Below, one piece after another: positions 5,106 through 51,603 of a stretch of DNA of 64,000 nt. The notes under the pieces were generated by a model. It did not search any database and was not told the origin of the DNA. It was given only the letters and a program-made list of their open reading frames with translations. Source of the stretch: an uncultured Succinivibrio sp. (lineage in GTDB: Bacteria > Pseudomonadota > Gammaproteobacteria > Enterobacterales > Succinivibrionaceae); contig CAAECI010000094.1 of NCBI GenBank assembly GCA_900754255.1, positions 365 to 64,364 of the forward strand. The letters run 5' to 3'. Both the position numbers and the translations under genes were made by a program. Each line of letters begins with the position of its first letter. Position 1 is the stretch's first letter.

Positions 5106-5146
5106 ATACTCCGCACCTCATTAAGGTTGCGGAGTATTGCTTTTCT
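5106..5146 (+). terminator. rho-independent terminator after dacB
   Basis: 10-bp stem ATACTCCGCA/TGCGGAGTAT followed by TGCTTTTCT. Confidence 0.7.
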
Positions 5147-7252: not shown

Positions 7253-7330
7253 TCTGCGTTATTAGGGCTCACCTTTTAGACATGGATCGACTAAGAACAG
7301 GCTTATTTAAAACAGGGTTAACTTTAATTT

Positions 7331-8737: not shown

Positions 8738-8912
8738 TCACAATCCTTCGGCATATGCCCGCGCACAAAGCGCGGGCATCTTCTTTAAAGAATCGTCGTC
8801 TTTGCTAAAATATTCCATATTGTCATGTATCCTGCTTTATTGTTTGACGACAGCAGATCAGTAGACAGTCAACGGCGATCCCTATTTTCCCCAAAAAATA
8901 TTTACATCAGGT

Positions 8913-9527: not shown

Positions 9528-9599
9528 CTTGATATAGTTTTAATTAGAGCATATATTTAACAAAACTATTCACTTTAGCTATATATTAGAGTACAGAGC

Positions 9600-10445
9600 A
9601 TGCAAACAATTTCTCACGAAAGCTTTGAGGGCGAGCGTCCCCTTTTCGGCAGGAAGGATCTTAAGCTTGATCATGTGATCATACTTCCAGGAGAATCGGC
9701 ACTTAAGGAAACCTCAAACATCGAGGCCGTAAACTGCGAATTCAACGGCAAATACCCTTTTTGGCATACCCACGGCTTTACCGTTACGGACTGCCTGTTT
9801 CGCGAGGGCGCACGTGCCGCCTTATGGTACTCCGATCATCTGATCATGACCGATACTCTGGTGTTGGCCCCCAAAATGTTCCGCGAAATGCACGATCTTA
9901 AGCTTGAGCGTGTACGCATTCCCCATGCCGGGGAAACTCTTTGGTATTGTCACGGCATCAAGTTTAAAGATTGCCGTGCCGATGAGGCCGACTATATATT
10001 CTTAGGCTCAAGCGATATCGAGCTTGAGAAGGTCACTATAAACGGCAACTATTCCTTCCAGAAAACCCACAACGTCATGATCTCGAACTGTGTTTTAAAC
10101 TGTAAGGACGCCTTTTGGGAGTCGGAAAACGTCACCGTTTGCAACAGCATCATCAACGGTGAATATTTAGGCTGGCACTCCAAGGGACTTAAGCTTATTA
10201 ACTGTCACATCAGCGGAACACAACCGCTCTGCTATGCCGAGGATCTTATCCTTGAGAACTGCAGCTTCGACAAGGATGCCGATCTGGCCTTTGAATACAG
10301 CTCCGTACACGCTTCAATCAAGGGTTTCATAAGCTCCGTAAAAAATCCGCTTTCAGGTCACATCACGGCCGCAGGCTACGGAGAAATCATACTGGATGAA
10401 AACCTTAAGGCCCCGGGCGACTGCCTCATCGATACCGCCCTTTGA
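9600..10445 (+). CDS. DUF3737-family (beta-helix-like) protein
   Basis: Repetitive C/N-rich segments, FWHTHGFTVTDC. Family recalled from memory and cannot be verified here. Confidence 0.5.
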   Translation: MQTISHESFEGERPLFGRKDLKLDHVIILPGESALKETSNIEAVNCEFNGKYPFWHTHGFTVTDCLFREGARAALWYSDHLIMTDTLVLAPKMFREMHDLKLERVRIPHAGETLWYCHGIKFKDCRADEADYIFLGSSDIELEKVTINGNYSFQKTHNVMISNCVLNCKDAFWESENVTVCNSIINGEYLGWHSKGLKLINCHISGTQPLCYAEDLILENCSFDKDADLAFEYSSVHASIKGFISSVKNPLSGHITAAGYGEIILDENLKAPGDCLIDTAL

Positions 10446-36458: not shown

Positions 36459-36533
36459 GAAATTAAATGATTAAGAACGTTCCGAATTTTAACTATTAAT
36501 GGAGCGTCAGAGAGAAAAGCCGAGGTGAAAATT

Positions 36534-36851
36534 ATGACGATTGAGATCCTGAACGACCGTAGCATGAGTTCAGTTAAGAATGGTCATGCCGCGGCTTCTT
36601 CAAAAAAGATTTCAAAGGGTGACGAAAAGGTTGCTTCTGCGCCGGTAAAAAGTGACGACGTTAAGCTGACCGATTCTGCCAAAGCCTTTTCTCGTGCCAG
36701 TGCAATTGCCGTATCATCCGACGGTATAGACCAATCAAAGGTCGACAAATTGAAGGCGGCCGTCAGGGACGGGTCTTACAAGGTCGATTATGAGTCGGTT
36801 GCCGCCAAGATGCTTAAGGACGAAAGTGAGCTAAGCGCGATATTCGGCTGA
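36534..36851 (+). CDS. flgM: anti-sigma-28 factor FlgM
   Basis: About 100-aa protein with the FlgM C-terminal helix motif (SAIAVSSDGIDQSKVDKLKAAVRDGSYKVD). ATG at 36534 with a GAGGTG RBS. Confidence 0.8.
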   Translation: MTIEILNDRSMSSVKNGHAAASSKKISKGDEKVASAPVKSDDVKLTDSAKAFSRASAIAVSSDGIDQSKVDKLKAAVRDGSYKVDYESVAAKMLKDESELSAIFG

Positions 36852-37005: not shown

Positions 37006-38061
37006 TTAAGCGGCAGTGCAGCTTCCTTCTTCATCCTTACCCTTTTTGACGCCGCTCTTTGCTTTCTTAGCCTCACAAAGCTCGTCAGGCTCCAGCAAAG
37101 CGGCCGGAGCCTGACGCCCCATCAAGGCATCGTCATCAGATCCGTTTCCGAATATATCATTACAAATACGCATGACATATTCCCTTTCCTCCTTAGGCAA
37201 ACGCGCGGCAAAAGCAGTCTCCAGGGCCTTGGGCACCGAAAGACTTGCGCAGACGTTAAGCAACGAGGCTACTCTTACCAGAGATCGGGTGGAAAAGGGG
37301 GCAGATAATGAAGCGCGCCCCTGCTCGGGACACGAGGTATGTCTTAGCTCCTGCGCCAAATGCACCAACTTTTCAAATATTTCATCATCAAGCCTTGAGC
37401 AGCGTTTCTTTAGGATCCTAAGCTCTACTCTTTTTTCCGGATAACCGACCTCCACAAAACGCCAGCGATCAAGAAAGGCCTGATTAAGCTGTCTTGTACC
37501 GTTATAAAAGCCCATGGCATCTCCCATTCCCTTGGTATTGGCCGTAGCGATCACGCGGAAGAAAGGAGAAGGCTCAATGATTTCTCCATTGTTTTGAGTG
37601 ATGGTGAGAGCTCTGCCCTCAAGCACGTCATTTAAGGCCGCAAGCTCTCCAGGAGGCATAAGGTCGATCTCATTTAGGATCAGGATCTTCCCAAGATTCA
37701 TGGCCTCTACCAGAGGACCGTATTGATATACGAGTTCACCATGCCTTAGTGTGGCATGCCCCATAAGATCGAAGGCCTCGGTGCGTGAGGAAAGAGTCAA
37801 TTGCACAACCTCCCATCCAAGACGTGCCGCCGTTTGCAAGGCCATCGAGGTCTTACCGCAGCCTGCAGGTCCAGAAAGAAAAAGACAATCCTTTTGAGGA
37901 TAGGCCAAATACAGCAAAAGCTGATTCAATACCGGCAGGTCGAATATATAGTTCTCATCGATGGCGGGGGGATTGGTTATATCATCAGGATCCGGTATCG
38001 TCATACTCTCAAGGCACAAACGTGAGGATGCAAATATTTCTCTCAAATTTACTTCAGCCAT
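37006..38061 (-). CDS. AAA+ ATPase, MoxR/CbbQ/NorQ/CobS-like
   Basis: Walker A (SGPAGCGKTS), Walker B (ILILNEID) and the MoxR-type helix-2 insert region. Strong SD (GGAGG) before the ATG at 38061. 8-nt overlap (ATGGCTGA) with the upstream gene. Confidence 0.7.
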   Translation of the reverse strand: MAEVNLREIFASSRLCLESMTIPDPDDITNPPAIDENYIFDLPVLNQLLLYLAYPQKDCLFLSGPAGCGKTSMALQTAARLGWEVVQLTLSSRTEAFDLMGHATLRHGELVYQYGPLVEAMNLGKILILNEIDLMPPGELAALNDVLEGRALTITQNNGEIIEPSPFFRVIATANTKGMGDAMGFYNGTRQLNQAFLDRWRFVEVGYPEKRVELRILKKRCSRLDDEIFEKLVHLAQELRHTSCPEQGRASLSAPFSTRSLVRVASLLNVCASLSVPKALETAFAARLPKEEREYVMRICNDIFGNGSDDDALMGRQAPAALLEPDELCEAKKAKSGVKKGKDEEGSCTAA

Positions 38062-38437
38062 GCTGTACCTCCGTGAACACCGGATCCGGATCAACGTTTC
38101 TTGCAGGATCAGCTCCGACCTCACATATAGATTGAGCATTAACCTCGGTAATTTCAACGGATGTAAGATCTCGTCCCACAAAACAACGGCGACGCAGCTT
38201 ACCACTTATAAATAAGATCTTGCCCGCATGTATCATATCCATACAGCGACTGGCTAAATTGTTGTTTTGCGCATCTCTGACCGCTACATGAAGACGGGTG
38301 GAGGAAAAAGGACCGTCACCGGGATCGGGTGACGTTACCAGATCAAAAAAGATCATGCGTCCGTTCCTACCCTTATAGTATTTGATCTTAGGATCATCCA
38401 TGACCCTGCCTACCAGCATTACTTGATTGTTCGACAA
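38054..38437 (-). CDS. SSB-like OB-fold protein (no acidic C-terminal tail)
   Basis: N-terminal NQVMLVGRVMDDPKIKYYKGRNG resembles the SSB NKVILVGNLGQDPEVRY segment. TTG start with a perfect AAGGAG SD. Translationally coupled to the AAA+ gene. Confidence 0.5.
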   Translation of the reverse strand: MSNNQVMLVGRVMDDPKIKYYKGRNGRMIFFDLVTSPDPGDGPFSSTRLHVAVRDAQNNNLASRCMDMIHAGKILFISGKLRRRCFVGRDLTSVEITEVNAQSICEVGADPARNVDPDPVFTEVQHG

Positions 38438-38482
38438 GAGAGTTCTCCTTACTTCAAAGAAATTAACTCCCTATATGCTATA

Positions 38483-38521
38483 AAAAGCGCCAAGTCACTC
38501 CCCCCGAAAACCGGCGCTTTT
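38483..38521. terminator. bidirectional terminator at the left island boundary
   Basis: AAAAGCGCC-loop-GGCGCTTTT. Confidence 0.6.
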
Positions 38522-38697
38522 AGCCATTTCTGATTTTTTTCTGGGCTTTTTAATAGTAAATAATTGCTTGTATAAACCATAGTCAACGCTCGCTTAATAT
38601 GGCATGACGGTCGACCTCGGCTTGTTTGTCTTTTCCTTGGTACAAAAACCTCAATAAAATGCGATCAAGACATAATGGAGTGACACGCAATATTCAG

Positions 38698-39903
38698 CTA
38701 TTTAAATCTTATTTGCAAATTCAAATTAAGATAGAATTTGTTGTTTTCGCAGTAGATAGTCATGAACTTATGCCTTTTCGCAGACGGACTTTCAAAACAC
38801 AAGTTTTCGTAAAGGTATTGTTTGAACTCCTCGGTCATACACGAATGTACTGCAACGATTTCGCCGTCATCCTTAACTACCACATATCCGCCGTTTACAG
38901 AAACTTTTCCGTTCCAAGGTTTACTCATACGCATGCCTGTAAACATATCAAACAGCAGATTTGAGATTTTTTTCTCATAAATGTATAAACAGTTGCTAAT
39001 CCCATAATCTGCATTTTCTGCGTCATGCTCAGAAACATATTCACAAGCTTCTTTAACCGAACTGTGTTCTTTCTTTGCCGAAGAATTAAAATAATAATAT
39101 TTAAGCAATGCTGCTGTAATACCTGGCAACTCCTTTCCGCCTGAGGTTATCAAATTTAACGCTGTGAATTCTCCGCAAGTTTTTTCAAAACGCAGATCGC
39201 AATTACTTTCTTTCAATAAATTCATTCGTTTACTGAACGAGGTAGATTTTTTTCCAGAGGAATCTGTATCCCACAAACAATTAAATGCTTCCATGATTTG
39301 TGCGTTACAGCCGATCACTTCGTACTGGAAATTCGTATTGTCGGCACTGGCATTAAAGAGCGTAGCCTTACCGGTTGGAAAGCTGGTTTTTATAGAATAA
39401 GCAAGCAGAGATTCCACACCTGTACGATAATCGGAAGCAAGAAAGTTGATGTCCGGCGTTCCACCGAAAAAACTCTTAGTCCCTTGTTGAGCAGGAGCCT
39501 TCAATTTCGTTACTTTTAGTTTGATTGCCAGAAACTTGCTGACATTACGGTCCTCAATACCCTCTTTGGGTTTTGCATTTTTGATCAAATCCCAGACTTT
39601 TTTTGCACACTTCTGAACGTCTTCAGACGAGACAAAACCGATGTCCAACTTTTCGTTTTCCGTTTTGTCCCAAACCGTATATGTGATATTTCTTGTTTTT
39701 TTATCTTCGTTATTGTGAGACGGTTCGTATTCAATCAGACGATTAGGAATTTCCTCTCGTAGAATTTTAAGAATGTTTAGATAAACTGCTTTATTAAGTT
39801 GCATCCCACTGTCCGCTGCGTACAGTTTTCCTTCATTCAAAATTTTTAAAAATACATATATTTCAGCCCATTCTCCGCGGTTTCCCGTTGTTATTTCCGT
39901 CAT
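38698..39903 (-). CDS. type II restriction endonuclease (HpaII-family-like), partner of the m5C MTase
   Basis: 4-bp overlap (ATGA) with the upstream MTase gene. N-terminal GEWAEIYVFLKIL...GKLYAAD resembles what I recall of the HpaII-type REase family (from memory, unverified). Confidence 0.5.
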   Translation of the reverse strand: MTEITTGNRGEWAEIYVFLKILNEGKLYAADSGMQLNKAVYLNILKILREEIPNRLIEYEPSHNNEDKKTRNITYTVWDKTENEKLDIGFVSSEDVQKCAKKVWDLIKNAKPKEGIEDRNVSKFLAIKLKVTKLKAPAQQGTKSFFGGTPDINFLASDYRTGVESLLAYSIKTSFPTGKATLFNASADNTNFQYEVIGCNAQIMEAFNCLWDTDSSGKKSTSFSKRMNLLKESNCDLRFEKTCGEFTALNLITSGGKELPGITAALLKYYYFNSSAKKEHSSVKEACEYVSEHDAENADYGISNCLYIYEKKISNLLFDMFTGMRMSKPWNGKVSVNGGYVVVKDDGEIVAVHSCMTEEFKQYLYENLCFESPSAKRHKFMTIYCENNKFYLNLNLQIRFK

Positions 39904-41003
39904 TTTAGAATCATCCTTATTTGATTAGCGATCGCCTCAATTACGGGAACCGTAACGCTGTTTCCGAATTGTTTATATAGGTGAGTATCAGCTAACACCA
40001 ATTTAAAATCATCGGGAAAGCCTTGCAGTCTGGCCCATTCTCTTGGAGTCATTTTTCTAATATCTTCCTTATTTATTACACCCTTAATGTGCGTAACCGG
40101 TGTCATGCTGTGCTCACGGTGATCTATAATCAAATTTCGTTCTCTTCCCATTCCGCCGCATACGATGGCTGAAGCTATTCCGTTCATATCTTTGATTTCG
40201 TAGCCGAATCCATGACCAAGAGCCTCGTGTCTGGCTTTATGACGCTTCAATGTCTCAACGTAAACATCTGAGAGGTAGTATTTTGAGGAAACCGGAGCTT
40301 TTTCCAGAATATCACTGATGCATGCTCTAATTCCGGTAGGAGTCGGAAATTTAAAAGAGGACGAATCCAAATCATCTCTGAAGGCGACTATATAAATTCG
40401 CTCCCTATTTTGCGGCACACCAAAGTCTTTACTATTCAGAACCTGAGAATAGACCCTGTACCCGATCTGTTCAAATGCCCCCCTGATAACTTTAAAAGTT
40501 CTGCCGCGGTCGTGTATAACCAGTCCCTTTACGTTTTCGCAAAAAATAACCTTTGGCTTGTGTTTGTCACAAATACGCACCACATCTTGAAACAAAGTAC
40601 CGCGGCACAATCCTTTGTAGTCGTCATTGAACCCCATACGCTTTCCTGCTAAAGAAAACGCCTGACACGGGAAACCAGCCAAACATATATCAAAGTCAGG
40701 AACGTCTTTTTCAGATATTTTTGTTATATCTCCACTGATCTCGAAAGGATCGTGAAAATTTGCGGTATAGGTTTTCTGTGCATATTTGTCCCATTCACTG
40801 ACAAATACAGTCTCTATGCTGTTGTTAAATGCTCTGTCGAAACCTATTCTGATCCCACCAATTCCAGCGAAGAGATCAACTGAACGAAAATTTTTTAATG
40901 AACTCACTGGTTTTAGACTCGTAAATAAAATGTGATATTGTACTTCTCTATATTGCCGTTTTCGGTATTTCAATAAACGATTCGTCCGAACGAAGCCATG
41001 CAT
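39900..41003 (-). CDS. DNA (cytosine-5)-methyltransferase
   Basis: Motifs I (DLFAGIGG), IV (GFPCQAFSLAGKR), VI (ENVKGL), VIII (QNRERIYIV), X (GNSVTVPV). Confidence 0.9.
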   Translation of the reverse strand: MHGFVRTNRLLKYRKRQYREVQYHILFTSLKPVSSLKNFRSVDLFAGIGGIRIGFDRAFNNSIETVFVSEWDKYAQKTYTANFHDPFEISGDITKISEKDVPDFDICLAGFPCQAFSLAGKRMGFNDDYKGLCRGTLFQDVVRICDKHKPKVIFCENVKGLVIHDRGRTFKVIRGAFEQIGYRVYSQVLNSKDFGVPQNRERIYIVAFRDDLDSSSFKFPTPTGIRACISDILEKAPVSSKYYLSDVYVETLKRHKARHEALGHGFGYEIKDMNGIASAIVCGGMGRERNLIIDHREHSMTPVTHIKGVINKEDIRKMTPREWARLQGFPDDFKLVLADTHLYKQFGNSVTVPVIEAIANQIRMILK

Positions 41004-41400
41004 TTAAAATGTCAACTGTCTTCTCTCTTTTAGATTTATTTGTCAACATGCAGGTCCAAACGACGGCAATTCTTAAACCGAGAGATAACAGTTGTCCTAT
41101 GACTTGAGCATCTCTCTTCTTATTTTTTTCTATTTTATCAATCCAAAAACCTCGATTTGTAGAAGGTAGCGAGGATTTTAAGCAATTTGCATGACCGTGC
41201 CAAAAGCATCCGTTTACCATCACGACGGCGTTGTATTTTTTAAAAAATAAATCGGGCGTACCTGGGAGACTTTTTACACAAGTCCGATAGCGATATCCCA
41301 TAGAAAACAACTTTTTTCTTATAAACATTTCAGGACCAGTATTTTTGGATCGAATGAGAGACATGTTCCTGCTTCTTTCTTTCTGATTTTTTGTATCCAT
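40948..41400 (-). CDS. vsr: very-short-patch repair endonuclease Vsr
   Basis: Vsr motifs (SLIRSKNTGPE, PGTPDL, NGCFWHGH, FW..K...N..RD). Overlaps the 5' end of the MTase gene. Confidence 0.85.
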   Translation of the reverse strand: MDTKNQKERSRNMSLIRSKNTGPEMFIRKKLFSMGYRYRTCVKSLPGTPDLFFKKYNAVVMVNGCFWHGHANCLKSSLPSTNRGFWIDKIEKNKKRDAQVIGQLLSLGLRIAVVWTCMLTNKSKREKTVDILNAWLRSDESFIEIPKTAI

Positions 41401-41698
41401 CTTTTCAATCCTCGATAAGTATAAGGTATGGATTTCCCTTCCCAAACCGAACCATGCGATTATACGTTTTGTATAACGCCTTTCTTAATTATTTCAAGAC
41501 AATCACATCAAGTACCGCAGACTGAACTTACGATTTATTAAAGACTTAATTCTTTACCTATATTTTCAAAATATCGCAAGCTTACTAAAAGTAAGTATAG
41601 TCAATATTTTAGCTATACTCAAAATATTGATAATATTTTTAAAATATTTATAATATATAAAGAATATTAATTTACACTTCTTTACAACACAAGGAATA

Positions 41699-41935
41699 GT
41701 GCAGATGAACGATACAGAATCCAAAAGAGAAAAATTTGTGAGGTTGGCTGAAGCAAGAACCAATAAGATTATTGATATGCTCAAGCTTTTAGGCAATTGC
41801 AGTAACTCAAATATATATGAGTACACGAAGGCGGATGTGGATAAAATTTTTTCAGCCATAGAAGCGGCAGTAAAATCTGCCAAACAGGGATATCTGATCA
41901 AAACAAACAATGAAGATGAAAGGTTCAAACTGTAA
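41699..41935 (+). CDS. small helical protein of unknown function (leader of the GHKL operon)
   Basis: 78-aa ORF directly upstream of the GHKL ATPase gene. Confidence 0.4.
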   Translation: MQMNDTESKREKFVRLAEARTNKIIDMLKLLGNCSNSNIYEYTKADVDKIFSAIEAAVKSAKQGYLIKTNNEDERFKL

Positions 41936-41957
41936 ATTAACTACAGGACGGTGCAGT

Positions 41958-43973
41958 ATGTACACAAATGATAATAAACAGCCGCAGTGGGATTTTCCTG
42001 GTTACCCATCAGGAAGCGGTCCTATTACTCAAGGACTTAACACGATAATACAGGATTCATTCAGAGAAAAACCTTTGGATTCATTAATTCGAGAGTGCTG
42101 TCAAAATTCATTGGATGCTTCGGCTAACAACGGAAAGCCCGTCAGAATAGAGTTTCATACTTTTGAAATGTTAACTTCCGATCTGCCGGGAATAGGCGCA
42201 CTGAAAAAGCATATAAAATCATGTCTTAACGGGGTGAATAAATCTAATAATGAGGGAACGAAAAATCCAGAAAAAATACTATACGAAACGGCAAATAGGA
42301 TATTAAACGACAGAAAATTGCTTTGTCTCAGGATAAGTGATTTCAACACTACCGGATTACCTGGGTCCAGAAAACCAAAAGATATTTATAAACTAACCCA
42401 ATGGTATAGATGTGTTGAAACAATGGGATGCTCAGGAGATAAAGAAAAATCGTCAGGGGGGTCCAAAGGAGTAGGTAAATCAACTGCATTTTATAATTCA
42501 GGCATCAGGACAGTGTTTTTTAATACCCTTGACCAAAACGGCGATGAAGCTTCAGAAGGAGTATCTTGGCAAACTTCACATTATGACAGCGATAATAATG
42601 AATGTACTCAGGGATTTTATGCTTGTAAAAATCAAGGTAGGAGACAAGCAATATATGCACAAACCATATTGGATAATTCATTTAAACGAAATGAACCTGG
42701 TACTGACCTCTTTATCATAGGTTTTAATCAAAATGAGAATGAATTCGGAGAAGATCATGATCTAGACACCGTCGTAAAGAATGTCGTAGTAGATTCTTTT
42801 TTACCCGCAATAAAAGCAGGTAATATAATTATCAAAACTGAAAGATCTGAAATAAGCCGTAATACATTACCTGATATCATAAAATATCTCTCATCCGAAG
42901 CCGTACCTAAGAAACGCATCAAACAAGCTAAATCCAACACTGAATTCAATTCAGTTATCGATTCTGAAATACCCGTAAATACATTAGAAACTGATAGCTT
43001 AGGTATAAAAGGGAAATTCGAAATCAAATTGCTTGCCAAGGATGATTACTGTAAAAAAATTGCCGTCTACCGAGAAATTGGCATGAAAATAAAAGAGTTT
43101 AAACCCAGAAAACCATTCGGCTTTGCCGGAGTATTAATAATAAAAGGTCCGGATTTAAATGAATTTATGAAAAACATGGAGACTAGCGCACATAATGACT
43201 GGCATCCAGATATCTATAATGCTGATAAAGAGCAGCTAAAAATTGCAAAACAAATAAAGGACAAACTAACTTATTTTGTTAAAGAATGTGTTGAAAATAT
43301 AAAAACCGAAACAAACAGCGATGATAAAATTGATTCAGGACTCGGAGCTTTATTTCCTGATTCCAATGATTCTTTAAAAACAAAAGGTGAATCTGTTTTC
43401 GGATTGGATCAGTTTGAGGATAAAAAGGAGTTTATTTTTAAAAATTCTTTATCAAACAAAGAAAACACTGTCAGTTATAAAAAAAATGATAAAGAACCCA
43501 ACAAAATATCAATAGATAAAAATGGCGATATAAATGATAAAGAATTCAGATCGACGACGAAAAGAAAAAAAAGCTCACATGATAGGACAGAATCCATCAG
43601 TCCCAACAATACTACGAACAAAGATAATCTTAATAAAGAAATCGAATCAAAGTTCGAAACAGTAAAAGTGAATCTGTCAAATATAAAATTCATTCCATTG
43701 GACAATGAAGGATTCAAATTTAGAGTGAGTTTCATTCCTGAAGTAGGCTATAAAACGGCAATGATTCGATTTAATGTGGCTGGTGAAACTACTGATTATT
43801 CATTACCGATCGCTTATGCAGAAAATGACAAAGGTCCTATTACAATTGAAAAAAACAGTATTTTGTTCGGCGTTCGCCTTACTAGGAATAAACCGTACTC
43901 TTTGGTAATAAAGTTGGAAGATAATACATTCAAATCTTTTTCGGTGGTTGTAGATGCTTATAAGAAAAAATAG
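41958..43973 (+). CDS. GHKL-superfamily (HATPase_c; Hsp90/MORC-like) ATPase protein, ~671 aa, with a large uncharacterised C-terminal region
   Basis: Bergerat-fold motifs: N-box LIRECCQNSLDA (ExxxNSxDA); motif II-like LRISDFNTTGLPGS; G2-box GGSKGVGKSTAFYNS (compare Hsp90 GVGFYSAF). Start at the ATG with an AGGA RBS. Confidence 0.65.
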   Translation: MYTNDNKQPQWDFPGYPSGSGPITQGLNTIIQDSFREKPLDSLIRECCQNSLDASANNGKPVRIEFHTFEMLTSDLPGIGALKKHIKSCLNGVNKSNNEGTKNPEKILYETANRILNDRKLLCLRISDFNTTGLPGSRKPKDIYKLTQWYRCVETMGCSGDKEKSSGGSKGVGKSTAFYNSGIRTVFFNTLDQNGDEASEGVSWQTSHYDSDNNECTQGFYACKNQGRRQAIYAQTILDNSFKRNEPGTDLFIIGFNQNENEFGEDHDLDTVVKNVVVDSFLPAIKAGNIIIKTERSEISRNTLPDIIKYLSSEAVPKKRIKQAKSNTEFNSVIDSEIPVNTLETDSLGIKGKFEIKLLAKDDYCKKIAVYREIGMKIKEFKPRKPFGFAGVLIIKGPDLNEFMKNMETSAHNDWHPDIYNADKEQLKIAKQIKDKLTYFVKECVENIKTETNSDDKIDSGLGALFPDSNDSLKTKGESVFGLDQFEDKKEFIFKNSLSNKENTVSYKKNDKEPNKISIDKNGDINDKEFRSTTKRKKSSHDRTESISPNNTTNKDNLNKEIESKFETVKVNLSNIKFIPLDNEGFKFRVSFIPEVGYKTAMIRFNVAGETTDYSLPIAYAENDKGPITIEKNSILFGVRLTRNKPYSLVIKLEDNTFKSFSVVVDAYKKK

Positions 43974-44313
43974 ATTATTTGCTTATCCTGTTTTAAATGA
44001 TCTTAATAAAAATTACAAAAAAGGAAAATTTAGTGCAGAACTTATTGATAAAAGTTTCGGAGATTATTATGTTTTTGATTGTCATTGCGAACTAGAAAAT
44101 AATAAAAGCATAGAAGCACTTATAAACGAAAGCAAGTGCCTTTATACTTGTTTAGTTGAATGTGGAAAAACGAAATACAGATATCTGTACAGCAGTAAGA
44201 CCCCTATTTTTGAAATAAAGATAAAGAAAACGGAATTATGCGGGCATGTTGAATTTTCTATTAATATAGTTGCCACAAAAAAAAAATACAAAATTTTTCG
44301 TCACCTGATTTAG
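43954..44313 (+). CDS. hypothetical Cys-rich protein. Possibly the 5' part of a gene split by a frameshift at an A10 tract.
   Basis: Overlaps the GHKL gene by 20 nt. Contains CHC...C..C..C. Ends 35 nt after an A10 run. Confidence 0.4.
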   Translation: MLIRKNRLFAYPVLNDLNKNYKKGKFSAELIDKSFGDYYVFDCHCELENNKSIEALINESKCLYTCLVECGKTKYRYLYSSKTPIFEIKIKKTELCGHVEFSINIVATKKKYKIFRHLI

Positions 44314-44378
44314 GCGAAGATTACTCCGGAAGATTAATAAACTTTGACGAGGGATCATTTATTGCTATCGGCCCCCAG

Positions 44379-44855
44379 TTGAGTGAAAATTTTCCCATGC
44401 TTAATGACAGCACTTTTGGGAAAAACAACTCTTTTATCAAAATACAACGTTGTATTAATCCAGATCCATCAATGAGTGTTGATTGGGACGATAATAATAT
44501 TACCATCTATTTATTTAACGATATATATCAATCATATTTAAAATACAAAGACCACAAAAATGTATTTAATCTCCTTATCCAGATGATAGTTGTTCCTGCC
44601 CTTATGGATGTTTTTTCAAAAATCGGCAGTGAATTAAATCATGATTTAATTAGTCCCGATTCCACTAAATGGTACCAAACAATAGATCGTCAATATAAAA
44701 AAGAAAGAAGCAATCGATGTCTGAAGGATGATATAGAATCAGATTCATCCTGTTTGACCATTGTACAAGATATTTTGAAACAACCTTTACGATGTGCTGT
44801 AAATTCTTTAGATGATCTCTTAATTTCTTTTGAAGGCGAGGATATGAATGAATAA
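44379..44855 (+). CDS. hypothetical protein. Frame is open upstream back to 44265.
   Basis: TTG/ATG starts. The reading frame overlaps the preceding ORF across the A10 tract. Confidence 0.4.
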   Translation: MSENFPMLNDSTFGKNNSFIKIQRCINPDPSMSVDWDDNNITIYLFNDIYQSYLKYKDHKNVFNLLIQMIVVPALMDVFSKIGSELNHDLISPDSTKWYQTIDRQYKKERSNRCLKDDIESDSSCLTIVQDILKQPLRCAVNSLDDLLISFEGEDMNE

Positions 44856-45633
44856 TCTAATTTATTTTAAAAGAGAAACGGTAGGAATAATTAAACATGA
44901 TTTAAAATTTATTCTTAATATTTTTTTTACAAATAATCCAATAGAAGAATTGGAGAAAAAATACGGGGAAATAATGGCGTATAAAACCTCCTTTTCATGC
45001 TCTGATTTCTCACTCCTTAAAGATAACGGAGAATGTGTTGGAGATCTGGAAGCCGTAAAACTTGTCCAAGATAAAATGGGGAACATGCCTGCCGCTTTGG
45101 CCTCTGAGGAAGGAATGTGGTCGGCATTAAGCCTTTCCGAACAGTTTTGGCCATATGTTAGAAAAAGATGGTTTATTCCTGCTTTGGAGAGACACTGCAA
45201 CACTAAAGAACCACCTATAAATATGGAACAGAAGGATAAAATATCACAATGGTTGCTTGCCAGAATTTTTTTTGAAAACTATCGCATTACTCGCCATGTT
45301 TTAGCCAGACTGTGGTGGATTGGCAAAATGACCTTTGTTGAAGGAGAAGATCCTTATAAACTTACGACCTTTGTCATGCGCAGTGAAGCATTAGTCACTG
45401 CAATATTCGAACGCAGTCAGGGATCGAACAGGACGCTGGTAAGAAATCTATGTTTCGAATTAATGAAAAGAGAAAAAAACGGAGAGTTAACGGTTAATCA
45501 GAATCTGATAAGAGAACTGTTCAAATATGTTAACGCTTGCGGCGGAGGCATATTGATAGACGAGGTGGCAAACAATCCTGATTCATTATCATTTTTAATG
45601 GATGCATTTTTAAAATGGTATAGACGCCGATGA
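44848..45633 (+). CDS. hypothetical protein (261 aa), last gene of the GHKL operon
   Basis: 8-nt overlap with the preceding ORF; no recognisable motif. Confidence 0.5.
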   Translation: MNNLIYFKRETVGIIKHDLKFILNIFFTNNPIEELEKKYGEIMAYKTSFSCSDFSLLKDNGECVGDLEAVKLVQDKMGNMPAALASEEGMWSALSLSEQFWPYVRKRWFIPALERHCNTKEPPINMEQKDKISQWLLARIFFENYRITRHVLARLWWIGKMTFVEGEDPYKLTTFVMRSEALVTAIFERSQGSNRTLVRNLCFELMKREKNGELTVNQNLIRELFKYVNACGGGILIDEVANNPDSLSFLMDAFLKWYRRR

Positions 45634-45881
45634 CTTATCAAAGAAGCGGCAGTTTATCTTCGATGAGGGTTAAATCTCACCAAAAATGACAGCTGGATGC
45701 AAAAAAACATGCCTATGCTGTAAAATTCACTCCAATGCTCAGATTTTTCTTAATTACTTGATTATTTTTTATTAAAGAAAATGAAGTTAAACAAAGTGCC
45801 TAGTTGCGCCTTGGCAAAGCGGAGATCAATTCGTCTGAAGTCTCCGCCCCTTTAGCAACGAAAATAAATCAGGACAATATA

Positions 45882-46352
45882 ATGCTTTACACCTTTAAAA
45901 TTTATCCCTCCGGTTGGGGCCGGATCGCCTACCGGGTGATGGAAGTAGGCGGAGACAAATCCTTCGACAGCTTGGCAATGGATATTCTGGCCGCATTTAA
46001 CTTTGGCTGCAATCATCTGTATGAATTCAGAAACACATTAGGAAGATCCGACCGTAGCATTATATTTAATCCCAACTACGACAATTTTAATCCGCTCTTG
46101 GGGTTTATCGGTGGAAACGACAGCGACACTGCCGACGAATATAACGATCCCTGTCCAGACCGCAGACATTATGACAGCCGCAGACCGATTAAATTCCTAA
46201 ATCCGGAAAAAAGTTCAAAATTTTATTTTCATTATGATTTCTGTGATGATTGGATTTTTGTCATCCATGTCTCCAAAGTAGAGGCCGATAAGCCATCACC
46301 TGATCACTCAAATGTCATTAAAAGCGTCGGGAAAGTAGGAGGCCGATATTAA
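45882..46352 (+). CDS. pRiA4b ORF-3-like (IS1096 TnpR-passenger-like) family protein
   Basis: N-terminal MLYTFKIYPSGWGRIAYRVMEV...HLYEF matches the pRiA4_ORF3 domain pattern (Y.lKV.L.g..PpIWRR..V...HLyeF). Confidence 0.55.
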   Translation: MLYTFKIYPSGWGRIAYRVMEVGGDKSFDSLAMDILAAFNFGCNHLYEFRNTLGRSDRSIIFNPNYDNFNPLLGFIGGNDSDTADEYNDPCPDRRHYDSRRPIKFLNPEKSSKFYFHYDFCDDWIFVIHVSKVEADKPSPDHSNVIKSVGKVGGRY

Positions 46353-46410
46353 AGCGAGGTTGAGGGATAAGCTCTTCGTTTAAGACACCGGCAGATTTAT
46401 GATGCCGAAG

Positions 46411-46438
46411 AAGCGGCTTTAAAATGTCCGCTTTTTTA
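46411..46438 (+). terminator. rho-independent terminator
   Basis: AAGCGG-loop-CCGCTT plus T6. Confidence 0.5.
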
Positions 46439-46514
46439 TTTAAGCACACGTTATAGAAAGTTCCGGGGCCTAAGGGCCGGCTATGCCGTCCATACTTTGC
46501 TCCGAGGCTGCACA

Positions 46515-46540
46515 CATAAAAAAGACGCCTTTACGGCGCC
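46515..46540 (-). terminator. terminator downstream of tRNA-Arg(CCT)
   Basis: Minus strand GGCGCC-GTAAA-GGCGTC followed by TTTTTTAT. Confidence 0.5.
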
Positions 46541-46543
46541 CTG

Positions 46544-46618
46544 TGGCGACCCCAGTAGGAATCGAACCTACAACTAGCCCTTAGGAGGGGCTTGTTATAT
46601 CCATTTAACTATGAGGTC
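46544..46618 (-). tRNA. tRNA-Arg (anticodon CCT)
   Basis: Reverse complement GACCTCA-TA-GTTA..TAAC-A-AGCCC-CTCCTAA-GGGCT-AGTT-GTAGG-TTCGATT-CCTAC-TGGGGTC-G-CCA. Confidence 0.85.
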
Positions 46619-46702
46619 AACGCACGGCATTATAGCAATTTTCGTGCGCTTCTTCCAAAAAATGGCTTTGGCCTCCACAAAATTTAGTTCTAATGAAAAA
46701 AA

Positions 46703-47875
46703 TTAAAGCATGGGTACGGCCAGATCGTGCAGTCTGATATTGAGCAGATTGTCGTCAAGCGAGTTGCTTTTTAGAAAAGCGGTATTGCGATCAACCCTTT
46801 GAACGGTATAGGTTCCGCTTGCCCTTTCGCTTTGACTAAAGCTGCGTCCGTCAGGATCATAGCCCTCCGAATACTGCTCTATGGCAAATTTCATACCGCG
46901 ACGTATGCCGTTCTCAGATCCCAAATTAATGATGAAGCCGTCATCCTCTATATCTATGATCTCCGCCTGAACCGAACGGCACTGTAAAAGGCCCGTCACA
47001 TCCTCGGCAGCCCTTTTAGCCAAATCGTTCATACGTCTTCCGAAATCACTGCCGGCAAAAAGCTCCGATCGCATATCTATATATTGCCCCTGCTTAAACG
47101 GCCAGTCGGCAACCATGTCATATTGCTTGGAAAACACACACATGCCGTCCTTTGCATCGTATACATTGATACCAAAGGAAAGAGTGCGCGTTCTTTGATA
47201 AAAAAGCTTATCCAAAACCCCGTTTCCCGCATCCGCAGCCGCTGCCGTATTGATGCTGCCCGTGATCAAAAACTGCGCATTTCCCTGCCTTGAAGCCGAG
47301 ATTATTTCATCCTGCAAGAGCTGATCGGGTGAGGAAGGTCCCAATGTTCCGCGTAAAACGGCATTGCTTTGCGGACGCATGAGCAACGAGGGGGACTTAG
47401 CTATATGTGAAAACACGGCCCTTGAGAGCTCTTTGTTTATATTGTCTATGCCGGCACTTCCCTGATATGCATTTTGATCGGCATACACAAAGGTTAAGGG
47501 CAAAACCGCCTTTTTTATCGAGGAGGCGGCACAGGTAGAAACGCGGCTTTCATCCAGCAAAACCTTGACGACCACCTCTACCCTGCCGCGGGTATTTTGC
47601 TCGGATACCACCACCACCTTTCTGACGGGAACGGCGCTTTGAACCTTAGTCCCGCCGGAGCCTAACACTCCGTCCCTAAAATCCTGTACCGTGGTAACCT
47701 GTGCTCCGGCCTCGAGCATGGCATTGCGTATGGCATCGTTTACGGCAGCATCGCGGGCATTTCCCACCGAATCGAGCACGGCGGCAGATCCGGTCACGGT
47801 ATGCCAGCCGGCGTAAGCAGATCCTGATATACACAGCAAGGCACTTAGGGCTATGATGCTTAGAGTATTACGCAT
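46703..47875 (-). CDS. flgT: flagellar H-ring/outer-membrane disk protein FlgT-like
   Basis: Signal peptide. About 390 aa. Divergently oriented to the flgO-flgP pair, as flgT is in Vibrio. Confidence 0.5.
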   Translation of the reverse strand: MRNTLSIIALSALLCISGSAYAGWHTVTGSAAVLDSVGNARDAAVNDAIRNAMLEAGAQVTTVQDFRDGVLGSGGTKVQSAVPVRKVVVVSEQNTRGRVEVVVKVLLDESRVSTCAASSIKKAVLPLTFVYADQNAYQGSAGIDNINKELSRAVFSHIAKSPSLLMRPQSNAVLRGTLGPSSPDQLLQDEIISASRQGNAQFLITGSINTAAAADAGNGVLDKLFYQRTRTLSFGINVYDAKDGMCVFSKQYDMVADWPFKQGQYIDMRSELFAGSDFGRRMNDLAKRAAEDVTGLLQCRSVQAEIIDIEDDGFIINLGSENGIRRGMKFAIEQYSEGYDPDGRSFSQSERASGTYTVQRVDRNTAFLKSNSLDDNLLNIRLHDLAVPML

Positions 47876-47997
47876 AACTCCTCCGTCTGAAATCCATCAT
47901 TTGGCACTGAACTTGCATTATTCATACCTAAAATATGTGACGTAATGATGACACGATTTAAATAATTAATTTCATGCAGTATGCAGGAGAGGCCCTC

Positions 47998-49011
47998 ATG
48001 AAAGCAAATATCCTATTGATTGCGGCGTTTATCATGGCTTTGTCCGTGAACGGATGCGCGGCAAATAATGCCAAGGGAGGCAATGAAAGCATATATGATC
48101 GTCCCGGCATGGAGATAAGCAAGACGGCCTCTCAAATGGCCGATACCCTGTGCGAAACCTTTAAACATGATCTTGAGGCTAAGGCTCGTAGCGATCACAG
48201 TGAATTTAAGAATTTCCCGATTGTAGGAGTAACCTCCTTCGTTGATACCGACACCTATGAGAATGCCGGACATTTGGGCAGAAGTCTGGGAGAGTTTTTC
48301 ATTCACGAGCTCGACCGTCGCGGGATCCCCGTCGCCGAATTTAAAACCACCGGCAGTCTCAGCATCACCGAGGACGGCGAGGACATATTCTCCCGTGATT
48401 ACAAGAAGCTCAAAGGGCAGGCCAAATTCCGTCATCTGCTTGCAGGGACCATCACGCGCAATGAATACGGCGTAGTGCTGTCTGGACGTATCATAGACAT
48501 GCAAAGCTCTCAGGTACGCGGATCGGCCACGGGCTTCATCCCATATAAATATCTGCCCTATTGCTATCGTACTCGGGAAAAGAATTGTTCCTTTGAAGGC
48601 AGTATTTCGTATTCAACCTATATTCCCTCATCAAAAAACATAAATTCCGGCACTGCGGTGAGCTCCTCGGGTAATGTAACGGACACCGTCACCTCCGTAC
48701 ATGCTACGGTAAGCGACTCCTCGACCTACGTCTCGACAGTAAAGAGCAACGGTAATATGCGTGAGGACGCCGCCGCGCGCACCGCTCGGGAGAAGCTTGA
48801 GCACGATCCTCTTTTTAATGAGAAATATTACCCGCAGGGGGCCAAAACCTCCCCCACCTCAAACGGTAATTACGAGCAATTCATTCATGATAAGGGCTCC
48901 ATGCGCGGACATTCCTCCGTGATCTATCCTGCCGATTCTTATCTTTACGGCGGACACTTGGTACGAGATGTGCATGATCAAAGTCAGTACCAAAGAATAG
49001 AGGACAATTAA
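47998..49011 (+). CDS. flgO: FlgO-like lipoprotein with an S/T-rich C-terminal extension
   Basis: Lipobox VNGCA; LpoB/FlgO-like core (VGVTSFVDTD...GRSLGEFFIHELDRRG); directly precedes flgP. Confidence 0.5.
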   Translation: MKANILLIAAFIMALSVNGCAANNAKGGNESIYDRPGMEISKTASQMADTLCETFKHDLEAKARSDHSEFKNFPIVGVTSFVDTDTYENAGHLGRSLGEFFIHELDRRGIPVAEFKTTGSLSITEDGEDIFSRDYKKLKGQAKFRHLLAGTITRNEYGVVLSGRIIDMQSSQVRGSATGFIPYKYLPYCYRTREKNCSFEGSISYSTYIPSSKNINSGTAVSSSGNVTDTVTSVHATVSDSSTYVSTVKSNGNMREDAAARTAREKLEHDPLFNEKYYPQGAKTSPTSNGNYEQFIHDKGSMRGHSSVIYPADSYLYGGHLVRDVHDQSQYQRIEDN

Positions 49012-49493
49012 TGCTTTTTACAGGCGGTTTTATGAAACTCAGACTTATTTGCACGGCATTAGTTGCAATGACGATGCTGGGAGCTTGCTCGGGAATGCTG
49101 TCAAGCACCTCCTTTACGCGAGATCTGGCCTACACGGATACCGGAGTCCATCGTCCCGATGAATTTCCCATCCTGCACGCCACCGGCTATGCTTCGATCT
49201 CCAGACAGCCCGGGCGTACCCAGGCCGAAAAGGAAATCACCGCCATGCGGGCCTCCAAGATTGAAGCCTACCGAGAGCTTACCGAGCAGGTAAACGGGAT
49301 CTATGTTAAAGCCGACAGCGCCGTCGACGGTAATACCCGTCAATTGCGTGACGGTATCAAAACTCAGGTTGAAGGCTATGTGCACGGCGCCCGCGTGATC
49401 CGTCAATATCCGGTAGGCGACAGCTACGCTACCGAATTGGAGCTTGATACCAAGATCATTTATGACCTGTACGATCTGAGAGGAGCATTGTAA
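49011..49493 (+). CDS. flgP: flagellar assembly lipoprotein FlgP (LPP20-like)
   Basis: Lipobox LGACSG; 160 aa; LPP20/FlgP-like pattern (ATGYAS...A...A.....L.EQVNGIYV). TAATG overlap with flgO; AGGA RBS. Confidence 0.6.
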   Translation: MLFTGGFMKLRLICTALVAMTMLGACSGMLSSTSFTRDLAYTDTGVHRPDEFPILHATGYASISRQPGRTQAEKEITAMRASKIEAYRELTEQVNGIYVKADSAVDGNTRQLRDGIKTQVEGYVHGARVIRQYPVGDSYATELELDTKIIYDLYDLRGAL

Positions 49494-49951
49494 TGAATCA
49501 GTTTACGGCATCCCCGTCCCCCGCCGTTTTACCGGTGGCATTCTTTATTAAGGAGCAAGAGCAAACTCTTGCGACCCTGCACGATCTTCTCATGCGTGAA
49601 AGACTGGCCCTGAGACATCGGGAGTTAAAGGACGTCAACGATTTGGCACAGAAAAAATCCGCCCTTATGGTTAAGCTACAGGCCAATGATCAAAAGATCA
49701 GACTGCATCCGGAGGCTAACCTACTGAAAACCGTCTTTAAGGATCGCGTGGATGCGATCAAGACCGCGCTTAAGGAATGCAAGCGCCTAAACGGTATCAA
49801 CGGTCGCCTTATAAACCTTGCCTTAAATTCTACGATCAGACTTTCTGCAGTGCTTATGCAGACCCGTGATCGCGTAACCCGCAATTTAACCTACAACGAT
49901 CACGGCCGCACCACCGCCCGCGGCCCCATGCGCCTGAGCATAGAGTGTTAA
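49493..49951 (+). CDS. flgN: flagellar export chaperone FlgN-like
   Basis: About 150-aa helical protein with a FlgN-like heptad pattern. Coupled (TAATG) to flgP. Confidence 0.5.
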   Translation: MNQFTASPSPAVLPVAFFIKEQEQTLATLHDLLMRERLALRHRELKDVNDLAQKKSALMVKLQANDQKIRLHPEANLLKTVFKDRVDAIKTALKECKRLNGINGRLINLALNSTIRLSAVLMQTRDRVTRNLTYNDHGRTTARGPMRLSIEC

Positions 49952-49961
49952 TATGCTTTAT

Positions 49962-50040
49962 TTTGGTGCATAGCGGGTTTTAAACCCAGCTCGTGCACCT
50001 TTTGTTTAAGATCCCCTTTGAATGGGGATTTGTTTTTATA
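49962..50040 (+). terminator. tandem rho-independent terminators after flgN
   Basis: GGTGCATAGCGGGTTTT/AAACCCAGCTCGTGCACC, then ATCCCC-TTTGAA-TGGGGAT plus T-run. Confidence 0.6.
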
Positions 50041-50094
50041 GCACAACCCCCGCTTTGCTTTCTTAATATTTTGATCTTTGACAGGGGCTTTTCC

Positions 50095-51603
50095 GTGCAA
50101 TCAAATCAAGATCCCGCAATCACCGGCCAAGGCGGTCTCAAGCGCTCCTTCGGTCTGTGTGAAGCTATTACCATCACCGCCGGATCCGTGATCGGCGTAG
50201 GTTTGTTTACCGTCGGCTCAAATGTAGTCGGTACATTGGGGGCCGCTGTGATCCTGGCAACGCTGGTGGCACTTGTGATCAGCGTCTACCCGGCCATGCT
50301 GTACGCAGAAATGGGAGCCGCCCTGCCCTATGCCGGCGGTACCTATCAGTTCGCCTCTCTGGGCTTAGGTCGCGCTGCCGGCATGCTGGCAGGCTGGAAC
50401 TTCATCATCTCGCTGGTGGCGGTCACCGGAGGTGAGGCTCTGGCCTTCTCTTACTATTTCAAGACCTTACTCTCCGCTTTGGGTATAGATCTTGAAATGT
50501 CCGACGTAATGCTGGCCTCACTCGTTTGTGCCGCCTTTATCATTGCCAACGTTTTCGGCGTTAAATTTACCGGCAGATTGCAAAACGGTTTTATGTTTTT
50601 CTTCTGGGGTGTGGCCGTGATCTGGTTTTTAACCATGATCCCCAATATTCATCTGCCTTACTTTGTTAAGGCGCCCGAATTTCTGGATTTTAGCGGTGAA
50701 GCAAGCTTCATGTCCCAGGTTTGCCTGATATGGTGGTGCTTTGCCGGCTTCGAGGCCTGTGTAGCCATGGGTGAGGAAATACGCTTCCCCCGCATCACGC
50801 TACCGCGTGCGCTCTTTTTAGCTCCCTTTGTAGTCTTTGCCGTCAATGCCCTCTTCCAGTGGTATCTGGTCGGCATCACTCCGGCCGAGGAGCTTAAGGC
50901 CATTGCCGAGGCCGACGCCCCCTTTGCGCAGGCCATGATGTCTGCGGGGATCTTAGGCTTCCCGCTTATATTGCTGGCTGCCGGCATCGCCTTCGGCGGT
51001 GATTTCTCCACCCTGAACGCCTCGATCGCAACGCCCCCTCGTTATCTTTTTACTATGGCTCGCGACGGCTCCATGCCCAAGATCTTTGCAAAGGTCTCCA
51101 AGCGTTATCAGACCCCCTATGTGGCGGTGATTTCCTTAGGCCTGCTCTCAATTGCACTGGTAGCCTCGAACTCACTCATCTACATTGCCTCCCTGTCTTT
51201 GTTTGCCGATCTCTTTTACTACGTAATCGGCATCATCGCTGCTTTGGCCCTGCGCAAGCGCCGCCCCGATCTTATCCGTACCTATAAAGCCCCCTTCATC
51301 AGCATAGGAGCGCCGATCTCCGCTCTCATCTACCTCTATATGATGACCGAGCTGGATGTCGACGCATTCATAACCGGAGCCGCTTGGTGCGTATTGGGGC
51401 TTGCCGTGTACTTCATCTGCAAGGCTAAATACGGTAAGGCCGGTGAATTTAAGCTGGATATGAAGATCTCAGGCGCAGATGAGATCCCCACCGCCGCAGA
51501 AAGAGCTCACCTCGATCGTGAGTATCTGACCTGGAGGATCGTGGTAGGAACAGCCTGTATCCTTGCCGTCTGCCTGTTCGCCGTACCCTTTGTTTTTGCG
51601 TAA
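50095..51603 (+). CDS. APC-superfamily amino-acid permease
   Basis: 12-TM profile with an APC signature region (FGLCEAITITAGSVIGVGLF). GTG start with a GGGG RBS; the ORF-track N-terminus is probably spurious. Confidence 0.75.
   Translation: MQSNQDPAITGQGGLKRSFGLCEAITITAGSVIGVGLFTVGSNVVGTLGAAVILATLVALVISVYPAMLYAEMGAALPYAGGTYQFASLGLGRAAGMLAGWNFIISLVAVTGGEALAFSYYFKTLLSALGIDLEMSDVMLASLVCAAFIIANVFGVKFTGRLQNGFMFFFWGVAVIWFLTMIPNIHLPYFVKAPEFLDFSGEASFMSQVCLIWWCFAGFEACVAMGEEIRFPRITLPRALFLAPFVVFAVNALFQWYLVGITPAEELKAIAEADAPFAQAMMSAGILGFPLILLAAGIAFGGDFSTLNASIATPPRYLFTMARDGSMPKIFAKVSKRYQTPYVAVISLGLLSIALVASNSLIYIASLSLFADLFYYVIGIIAALALRKRRPDLIRTYKAPFISIGAPISALIYLYMMTELDVDAFITGAAWCVLGLAVYFICKAKYGKAGEFKLDMKISGADEIPTAAERAHLDREYLTWRIVVGTACILAVCLFAVPFVFA

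Follow-up and report, generated by a model that had tools for sequence, protein, structure and literature searches.

Why does a gene for a protein resembling the single-stranded DNA-binding proteins (SSBs) overlap a gene for an AAA+ ATPase in a bacterial chromosome, with a flagellar gene on one flank and a defence island on the other? The question is raised by a stretch of 64,000 nucleotides (hereafter the window) from an uncultured Succinivibrio sp. of the Succinivibrionaceae (assembly GCA_900754255.1, contig CAAECI010000094.1, positions 365 to 64,364), in which the two genes lie on the minus strand between flgM (36525-36851) and an island of restriction-modification (R-M) and defence genes. 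The reading favoured here, to which as a whole we give an even chance of being right, is that the pair is a domesticated fragment of a mobile-element module with the gene order SSB, CobS-like AAA+, DUF3150 and VWA, and that the SSB-like protein serves as an adaptor or substrate of the ATPase in a DNA transaction. The statements on the identity and the evolution of the pair are probably correct and are made with good confidence; those on its mechanism, which are drawn by analogy, are tentative and could easily be wrong.

The SSB-like gene (38054..38437, minus strand) begins with TTG, has the Shine-Dalgarno sequence AAGGAG 7 nt upstream of this start (38445..38450, minus strand), and encodes a tail-less SSB-family OB-fold protein of 127 aa. 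The ATPase gene (37006..38061, minus strand) begins with ATG and encodes a Vcrx089-like protein of 351 aa of the CbbQ/NorQ/CobS class (MoxR clade), with the N-terminus MAEVNL; a 399-aa open reading frame (ORF) with a GTG start was set aside as an over-extension. The TGA stop codon of the small gene overlaps the ATG of the ATPase gene within 8 nt (38054..38061, minus strand), which read tcagccat on the plus strand and ATGGCTGA on the coding strand, an arrangement of translational coupling. Three sets of close relatives gave a ratio of non-synonymous to synonymous substitution rates (dN/dS) of 0.035-0.051 for the ATPase gene and of 0.11-0.27 for its small partner; in a fourth set (loci L001, L021 and L053) the ratio is 0.21-0.29 and 0.18-0.42, respectively. 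Because these values are low and the arrangement recurs in dozens of species, both are real genes under purifying selection and not chance ORFs, and together they form a genuine, coupled two-gene operon. The small protein evolves several-fold faster, with 33-43% identity where the ATPase shows 62-71%.

Much of what had been proposed in an earlier, sequence-only reading of this DNA holds at this level. The SSB-type domain called in the small protein and the AAA+ domain called in the larger one were both recovered by Pfam and Foldseek, the proposed translational coupling corresponds to the 8-nt overlap ATGGCTGA, with both ORFs at the positions that had been given and on the minus strand, which had been left unstated, and the quoted Walker A (SGPAGCGKTS, residues 63-72) and Walker B (LILNEID, residues 127-133) sequences are both present in the ATPase translation. 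The absence of a VWA partner, which had been implied, was confirmed within the window by tblastn with five probes, which found no VWA or DUF3150 gene.

The ATPase contains the Pfam domains AAA_5 (75 bits) and CbbQ_C (31 bits), and its sequence matches in the PDB are midasin AAA modules, CobS (E 4.5e-27), NorQ and CbbQ. Its AlphaFold2 model has a predicted local distance difference test score (pLDDT) of 81, and every one of the top 21 structures that Foldseek retrieved with it is a chain of NorQ or CbbQ, at target-normalised TM-scores (TMt) of 0.82-0.88. Walker A (GPAGCGKT, residues 64-71) is encoded at 37849..37872 and Walker B (ILILNEID, residues 126-133), with Asn for the usual Asp, at 37663..37686, both on the minus strand. 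Among 32 homologues, G64, G67, C68, G69, K70, T71, the sensor-1 residue N175, R199/R201 and the sensor-2 residue R259 are invariant, and the Walker B residues N130 and E131, an N-E instead of the usual D-E, are conserved in at least 90%. Since the Vcrx089-type protein of IncC plasmids has the same N-E (LLLINEVD), the Asn is a trait of the family and no sign of decay. The ATPase is thus predicted to be a ring-shaped remodeller of NorQ/CbbQ fold with intact catalytic motifs. It shares this fold with the ATPases of the NorQ/NorD, CbbQ/CbbO and CobS/CobT(/CobN) systems, and the Walker A, sensor 1, arginine finger and sensor 2 of the CbbQ/NorQ type are all intact. Those systems work with a VWA-MIDAS partner, whereas none is adjacent to the pair, nitric-oxide reductase, Rubisco and cobalamin genes do not accompany it, and its Walker B differs by the Asn for Asp. 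The best NCBIfam match is CobS (TIGR01650), at 92 bits against an equivalog cut-off of 558.55, a score so far below the cut-off that a true CobS is ruled out.

The C-terminal tails of these ATPases are variable and of low complexity, and often close with a basic cluster. Two solo ATPases without an SSB-like partner (P0037 and P0040, from loci of the L042/L044 type) end in RGRPKK, an AT-hook-like motif; the tail in the window carries a weaker basic patch, KKAKSGVKKGK.

The small protein passes the Pfam SSB model PF00436 only narrowly (28.3 bits, cut-off 26, E 2e-6) and scores 27 with the NCBIfam ssb model, below its cut-off of 54. Its AlphaFold2 model (pLDDT 75) has the five-strand OB topology, and the top 50 Foldseek matches in the PDB are all single-stranded DNA (ssDNA)-binding proteins, nearly all bacterial, with TMt 0.69-0.88; the structural search that the sequence-only reading had proposed thus places the protein in an SSB-type OB fold and not in a non-OB family. 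In common with the bacterial homotetrameric SSB of E. coli type, and as seen in the alignment with E. coli SSB, it keeps the N-terminal NxVxLxG motif, the equivalent of His55 and the GxLRxR strand. It has lost, by comparison, the Trp40, Trp54 and Phe60 of that protein together with its linker and DDDIPF tip. The positions of W40, W54, F60 and W88 are occupied by P, L, D and F, so that one of the four, the Phe at W88, is aromatic; across the small-protein family most members have lost Trp40, Y or F usually stands in for W54, no member has an aromatic residue at F60 and about half have one at W88. Neither a DDDIPF-type C-terminal tip nor a disordered linker is present in the small protein, which ends in ...DPDPVFTEVQHG, and the acidic tail reported as missing is indeed missing in the sense of this tip, what remains (DPARNVDPDPVFTEVQHG) being short and mildly acidic. 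Relatives end variably or straight after the OB fold. The tip and linker are kept in the SSBs encoded beside homologous ATPases on IncC plasmids and integrative and conjugative elements (ICEs), as in loci L012, L078 and L100.

The family of the small protein is tiny. An exhaustive profile search among 1.84 billion proteins found 11 representatives below E 1e-10 and then merged into the general SSBs, while a word-indexed homologue search returned only a 99% twin with the single protein and only seven matches with the 21-sequence family alignment. The family profile matches the SSBs of ICEs and IncC plasmids at E 2e-14 to 4e-17. In one metagenomic variant of the L001 type (locus L004, 5760-6020 and 7283-7720), the small gene is called as 86 aa only and the flgM ORF is altered, for which frameshifts or assembly errors are a possible cause.

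In a scan with one genome per species, the ATPase was found throughout the Succinivibrionaceae (Succinatimonas, Succinivibrio, Anaerobiospirillum, Ruminobacter and Succinimonas) at 44-71% identity. In Succinatimonas, Succinivibrio and Anaerobiospirillum it lies between flgN and flgM, and the usual order is tRNA-Arg, flgT (minus), flgO-flgP-flgN (plus), variable cargo, the SSB-like gene and the ATPase gene (plus), flgM-flgA (minus) and cheV-cheR (plus). In the Succinatimonas and Succinivibrio loci, ATPases of 52-71% identity stand beside CheV of 63-79% and FlgP of 54-86%. The SSB-like gene directly precedes the ATPase on the same strand in 33 of the 56 loci of Succinivibrionaceae type, which answers the question of co-occurrence raised by the sequence-only reading; the junction in relatives ranges from a 19-nt overlap to a 154-nt gap and is always on one strand. 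The pair is an old chromosomal resident that has been inherited vertically in the family. The sequence-only reading had itself named the outcome that would speak against it, a conserved housekeeping operon, for example a CobS-like one, and this is largely what was found, since related genomes conserve the two genes as a chromosomal pair of CobS-like kind.

The flagellar setting is not universal. The pair or a lone ATPase occurs without nearby flagellar genes in several loci (L010/L045, L042/L044, L049, L052, L092/L103 and L101). Some examples are the locus of S. hippei YIT 12066 type, where the pair has feoAB on one side and, on the other, a pst phosphate-transporter operon together with a flavodoxin gene, Ruminobacter, where the ATPase stands among housekeeping genes, and one Succinivibrio metagenome-assembled genome (MAG), where it lies beside tRNA-Arg and proS with no flagellar gene in view. 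In five of the non-flagellar loci (L010, 5787-5844; L045, 7751-7808; L049; L042; L044), some 150-600 nt separate the ATPase, with or without the SSB-like gene, from the 3' end of the same tRNA as is found beside flgT in other loci, which may be a mark of the loss or relocation of a flagellar block; fragments of IS66 lie nearby in L010.

Some Anaerobiospirillum loci (L056, L060, L061, L065, L067 and L070, at about 5000-10200) place the ATPase within an ORF of 820-1290 aa, these being longest-ORF calls in GC-rich DNA whose N-terminal boundary may be over-extended. The N-terminal region of 300-600 aa is of unknown fold, carries conserved motifs such as HLKHGSMYWARL in three species and is of low complexity in two others; the lid domain has an insertion of about 140 aa, and several genes without Pfam matches precede. 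Loci with these long ORFs are devoid of an SSB-like gene, with the exception of L069. The fusions were also considered as a Rosetta-stone link between the two proteins, which was rejected, as they hold no SSB-like domain.

Outside the Succinivibrionaceae, the homologues are all found in the DNA-metabolism operons of conjugative elements. Among plasmids, 3,864 records (2,861 conjugative) contain relatives of the ATPase at 36-47% identity, and further ones lie in ICE-like regions of Chromatiaceae, Methylococcales, Desulfovibrio, Sutterella and Trichlorobacter. Two layouts recur. In the first, the AAA+ gene is followed by DUF3150 and a CobT-like VWA gene, with a canonical ssb upstream or nearby, and ICE loci read SSB, in some cases two further genes, AAA, DUF3150, VWA. 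In the second, seen in IncC, pAsa4/pAsa4c and SXT-type elements of the MOBH/MPF_F kind, the order is AAA+, a hypothetical protein of 300 aa, ssb, bet, exo, DUF3150 and VWA, and a Salmonella genomic island has AAA, a hypothetical gene, (ssb), bet, exo, DUF3150 and VWA. Linkage to ssb is consequently common for this AAA+ subfamily on conjugative elements, and the sequence-only reading overstated its case in calling an SSB-like partner unusual; what does remain unusual is that only an SSB-like gene and the ATPase are left and that the SSB is degenerate. Viral contigs hold only distant cyanophage-type CobS-like relatives of at most 38% identity, for which reason the pair is not phage-derived in any recent sense.

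The modules closest in order to the pair are those with SSB, CobS-like AAA+, DUF3150 and CobT-like VWA, as in a Trichlorobacter-type locus (L012) and a Methylococcus MAG (L077). They share with it the SSB-then-AAA+ order on one strand and an ATPase of 36-46% identity, but they have DUF3150 and VWA genes after the ATPase, a canonical SSB with an acidic tip and type IV secretion genes nearby, none of which is found in the window.

Roy et al. 2020 (PMC7498323) described the second layout as the hde operon, and it was compared here through an IncC plasmid whose gene order is identical to that of pVCR94. Over 300 residues, the ATPase of the window shares 43% identity (E 4e-72) with the protein that holds the position of Vcrx089 on IncC. 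In this operon, vcrx089 (AAA_5 and CbbQ_C) and vcrx090 serve the evasion of type I restriction in the recipient, ssb-bet-exo repair CRISPR-Cas breaks, and a structure that sequesters the ribosome-binding site lies upstream of vcrx089 (PMC7498323). Deletion of vcrx089-90 leads to 400-900-fold more restriction by EcoKI and EcoBI, and a transposon-insertion sequencing (TnSeq) screen yielded five required genes, with neither DUF3150 nor VWA, which lie downstream, among them (PMC11602122), from which it follows that a Vcrx089-type ATPase can act with a non-VWA partner. The two genes are listed as a two-gene system, vcrx089_090, in AntiDefenseFinder (PMC11724313). The vcrx089-090 module (IncC pVCR94, pKAZ3 and SXT/R391 ICEs) resembles the pair in its AAA_5 and CbbQ_C architecture, in the N-E of Walker B and in having its ATPase as the first gene of a tightly packed operon that includes ssb. 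It differs in that the IncC and ICE SSBs keep the DDDIPF tip that the SSB in the window is without, in that ssb lies two genes downstream of the ATPase in the hde operon but upstream and overlapping in the window, and in that it is carried by conjugative elements while the pair is chromosomal and vertically inherited. The gene s063 of SXT was also considered as the ATPase and rejected: the SetCD paper shows s063 to be divergent from the s089 operon, and the published defect in transfer, roughly 100-fold when s063 is deleted, applies to this divergent gene and not to the ATPase.

A neighbour-joining tree of 71 ATPases groups those of the Succinivibrionaceae together at 96% bootstrap support, apart from a mobile-element clade supported at 100%. 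Two VWA-linked ATPases (L024/L096 and L011) nest inside the chromosomal clade, with L024/L096 as sister to the L001 group at 100% support. In L096 (3494-6392), as in L024, L097 and L098, a paralogue 57-61% identical to the ATPase of the window is followed by a VWA/CobT-like protein of 557 aa; the L024/L096 pair stands in a run of small same-strand ORFs without family matches, in the same MAG lineage as L001. The make-up of this run suggests a mobile element, and the nesting of the paralogue inside the chromosomal clade suggests a capture or exchange of genes between chromosome and element.

The mechanism that we propose would start from an ancestral module of SSB, CobS-like AAA+, DUF3150 and VWA genes, the first two of which alone were retained. 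The SSB-derived OB fold would then have lost its protein-recruiting C-terminal tip and most of the aromatic residues that stack on ssDNA, and an oligomer of the SSB-like protein would occupy the place held elsewhere by VWA or Vcrx090, as an adaptor or substrate of the AAA+ hexamer. Such an adaptor could bring ATP-driven remodelling to ssDNA or to a DNA-bound protein complex, and the role would be in a DNA transaction, for example in alleviating attack by nucleases or restriction enzymes or in helping repair or recombination, which is more likely than a role in flagella or in cobalt chelation. Complex formation, association with DNA and the cellular role are steps that we infer.

Several points weigh against this proposal. 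The small partner is missing from 23 of the 56 loci, including those of S. dextrinosolvens DSM 3072, some other Succinivibrio, the Ruminobacter/Succinimonas group and most Anaerobiospirillum, and is thus not obligatory for the ATPase. Because only one of the four canonical stacking positions is aromatic, ssDNA binding by the SSB-like protein of the window is uncertain. No homologue of Vcrx090 was found in the window or in any Succinivibrionaceae chromosomal locus by tblastn with the IncC and pAsa4c Vcrx090 proteins, and consequently the anti-restriction activity of Vcrx089 is not simply transferable to the pair; nor is the small protein a disguised counterpart, as hhalign gives Vcrx090 and the small-protein family a probability of 0.1%, that is, no relationship. 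No bet or exo was seen among the ORFs annotated around the pair. The VWA-linked genes inside the chromosomal clade indicate that a chromosomal-type ATPase can still be combined with a VWA partner, so that a partner acting in trans is possible, and in the collinear species co-transcription with flgO-flgP-flgN is possible as well. Finally, a physical complex of the two proteins is conjectural.

A partner in trans is the core of the strongest competing explanation, in which the ATPase is a classical MoxR-VWA chaperone of CbbQ/NorQ/CobS type with its VWA protein encoded elsewhere in the genome, and the SSB-like gene is a bystander or a minor accessory. The ATPase shares its fold with NorQ and CbbQ, both of which work by way of a VWA partner; the VWA-linked paralogues described above occur in the same lineages and within the chromosomal clade, and the SSB-like gene has been lost repeatedly. 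Nevertheless, in addition to the negative search of the whole window, none of about 50 syntenic loci has a VWA or DUF3150 gene in the 6-8 kb around the ATPase, the tight and often overlapping coupling to the SSB-like gene is held under purifying selection in most lineages, and the IncC Vcrx089 works with a non-VWA partner (PMC7498323). On balance this explanation is unlikely.

A flagellum-linked function also has to be weighed, in which the pair would be an accessory chaperone or remodeller of Vibrio-type flagella, acting in export-chaperone or FlgN/FlgM anti-sigma cycles or in H-ring assembly, and co-expressed with flgO-flgP-flgN. The position between flgN and flgM is kept in most motile Succinivibrionaceae genomes sampled, on the strand of flgO-P-N, L007, L001 and L026 show no convincing terminator or promoter between flgN and the small gene, and the ATPase evolves at a rate similar to that of the flanking flagellar genes. 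The same gap, however, houses unrelated cargo in other genomes (an amino-acid permease, an EamA transporter), the pair or the ATPase persists in the loci without flagellar neighbours, so that co-occurrence is not strict, an inversion in the window has parted the pair from flgN, and the homologues outside the family are without exception in conjugative-element DNA-metabolism operons. A promoter scan found no sigma54 or sigma28 motif upstream of the pair in the window, and in 33 related loci nothing save a weak sigma28-like motif in L001 and a poorly placed sigma54-like motif in L042, whereas its positive controls, sigma54 -24/-12 motifs (TGGCAC-N5-TTGC) that are perfect or have one mismatch, were found at 47902 (plus strand) before flgO and at 30465 and 32557 (both minus strand) before the flgB/flgF-type rod-gene operons. 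Neither protein matches a flagellar Pfam family, which bears out the earlier statement that flagellar homology is lacking; the broader claim that the pair is not part of the flagellar regulon is favoured by this and by the missing sigma54 and sigma28 motifs, but runs against its synteny with flagellar genes and is only weakly testable. A flagellar function is accordingly rather improbable.

The leader of the small gene (38477-38524, minus strand) is conserved and has a hairpin followed by UUUUUAU, with a second hairpin over the Shine-Dalgarno region; its folding z of -1.9 is not significant, and an Rfam scan of the locus gave no match.

The pair abuts an island with an HpaII-type R-M system, Vsr and PDC-M33, and could be taken for a part of it or for a defence system in its own right, as the sequence-only reading had hinted in linking the two. 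This is contradicted and very unlikely. A sister contig (L095), 99.5% identical, lacks the island and keeps the pair, which is thus not island cargo; more than 50 species-level loci have the pair without such an island, and PADLOC gave no meaningful match with either protein. The island is a separate, strain-specific event, of which the pair is independent.

Weakest of all, and likewise contradicted, is the idea that the ATPase is a genuine cobaltochelatase CobS or a decaying, non-functional mobile-element remnant, which the CobS annotation given by JGI to some homologues, the CobS match in NCBIfam and the mobile-element ancestry might suggest, but which is extremely improbable given the score far below the CobS cut-off, the lack of any CobT or VWA-type gene turning up in the window (CobN was not specifically searched for), and a dN/dS of about 0.05 with invariant catalytic residues, which rules out decay.

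The ATPase family and its linkage to ssb are already known. No description was found in the literature of a chromosomal, family-wide version without VWA or Vcrx090, with a tail-less SSB, in a flagellar locus. Vcrx089-type ATPases are carried by thousands of multidrug-resistance plasmids, including IncC, and by SXT/R391 ICEs, and they strongly blunt type I restriction; a minimal chromosomal version of two genes in a gut and rumen family would offer a simpler system for finding the target of the ATPase. It also illustrates how a counter-defence gene of mobile elements has apparently become fixed in a host chromosome. In its most specific form, which we regard as unlikely, the proposal is that a plasmid anti-restriction ATPase was permanently domesticated and coupled to a degenerate, tail-less SSB as a host device for restriction alleviation or DNA protection. 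If so, the device could, for example, protect the chromosome or incoming ssDNA as R-M and defence islands such as the neighbouring one are gained and lost, no earlier chromosomal form of this machinery would be free of VWA and Vcrx090, and ssDNA or an SSB-like surface would be the element through which Vcrx089-type ATPases work. If the pair serves the flagellar locus instead, it would represent a flagellar accessory factor of a new kind. On both views, its current label of CobS or cobaltochelatase is wrong.

The neighbouring island occupies 7.8 kb (38541-46345). Contig L095 matches the window up to 38540, continues with 106 unrelated nt and resumes at 46346-46600, beside a tRNA-Arg(CCT) (46544-46618). 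The island encodes an HpaII-type restriction endonuclease (38698-39903), a C5 DNA methyltransferase (39900-41003) and Vsr (40948-41445), all on the minus strand, the PADLOC candidate system PDC-M33, with A at 41910-43973 and C/DUF6339 at 44848-45633, and a PRiA4_ORF3 gene (45804-46352); no integrase was seen in it. PDC-M33B appears as two ORFs (43954-44313 and 44379-44855), one matching the N-terminal and the other the C-terminal half of the PADLOC model (289 positions), and it could be either a frameshifted, inactivated gene or a genuinely split one. Beyond the island, the block from tRNA-Arg(CCT) through flgT, flgO, flgP and flgN to an amino-acid permease (46544-51603) is reversed relative to relatives such as L015. 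One breakpoint of this inversion falls between dctP and the tRNA, the other between the permease and the SSB-like gene; the inversion brought the tRNA beside the pair and parted the pair from flgN, and the island sits at the new junction between the tRNA and the SSB-like gene.

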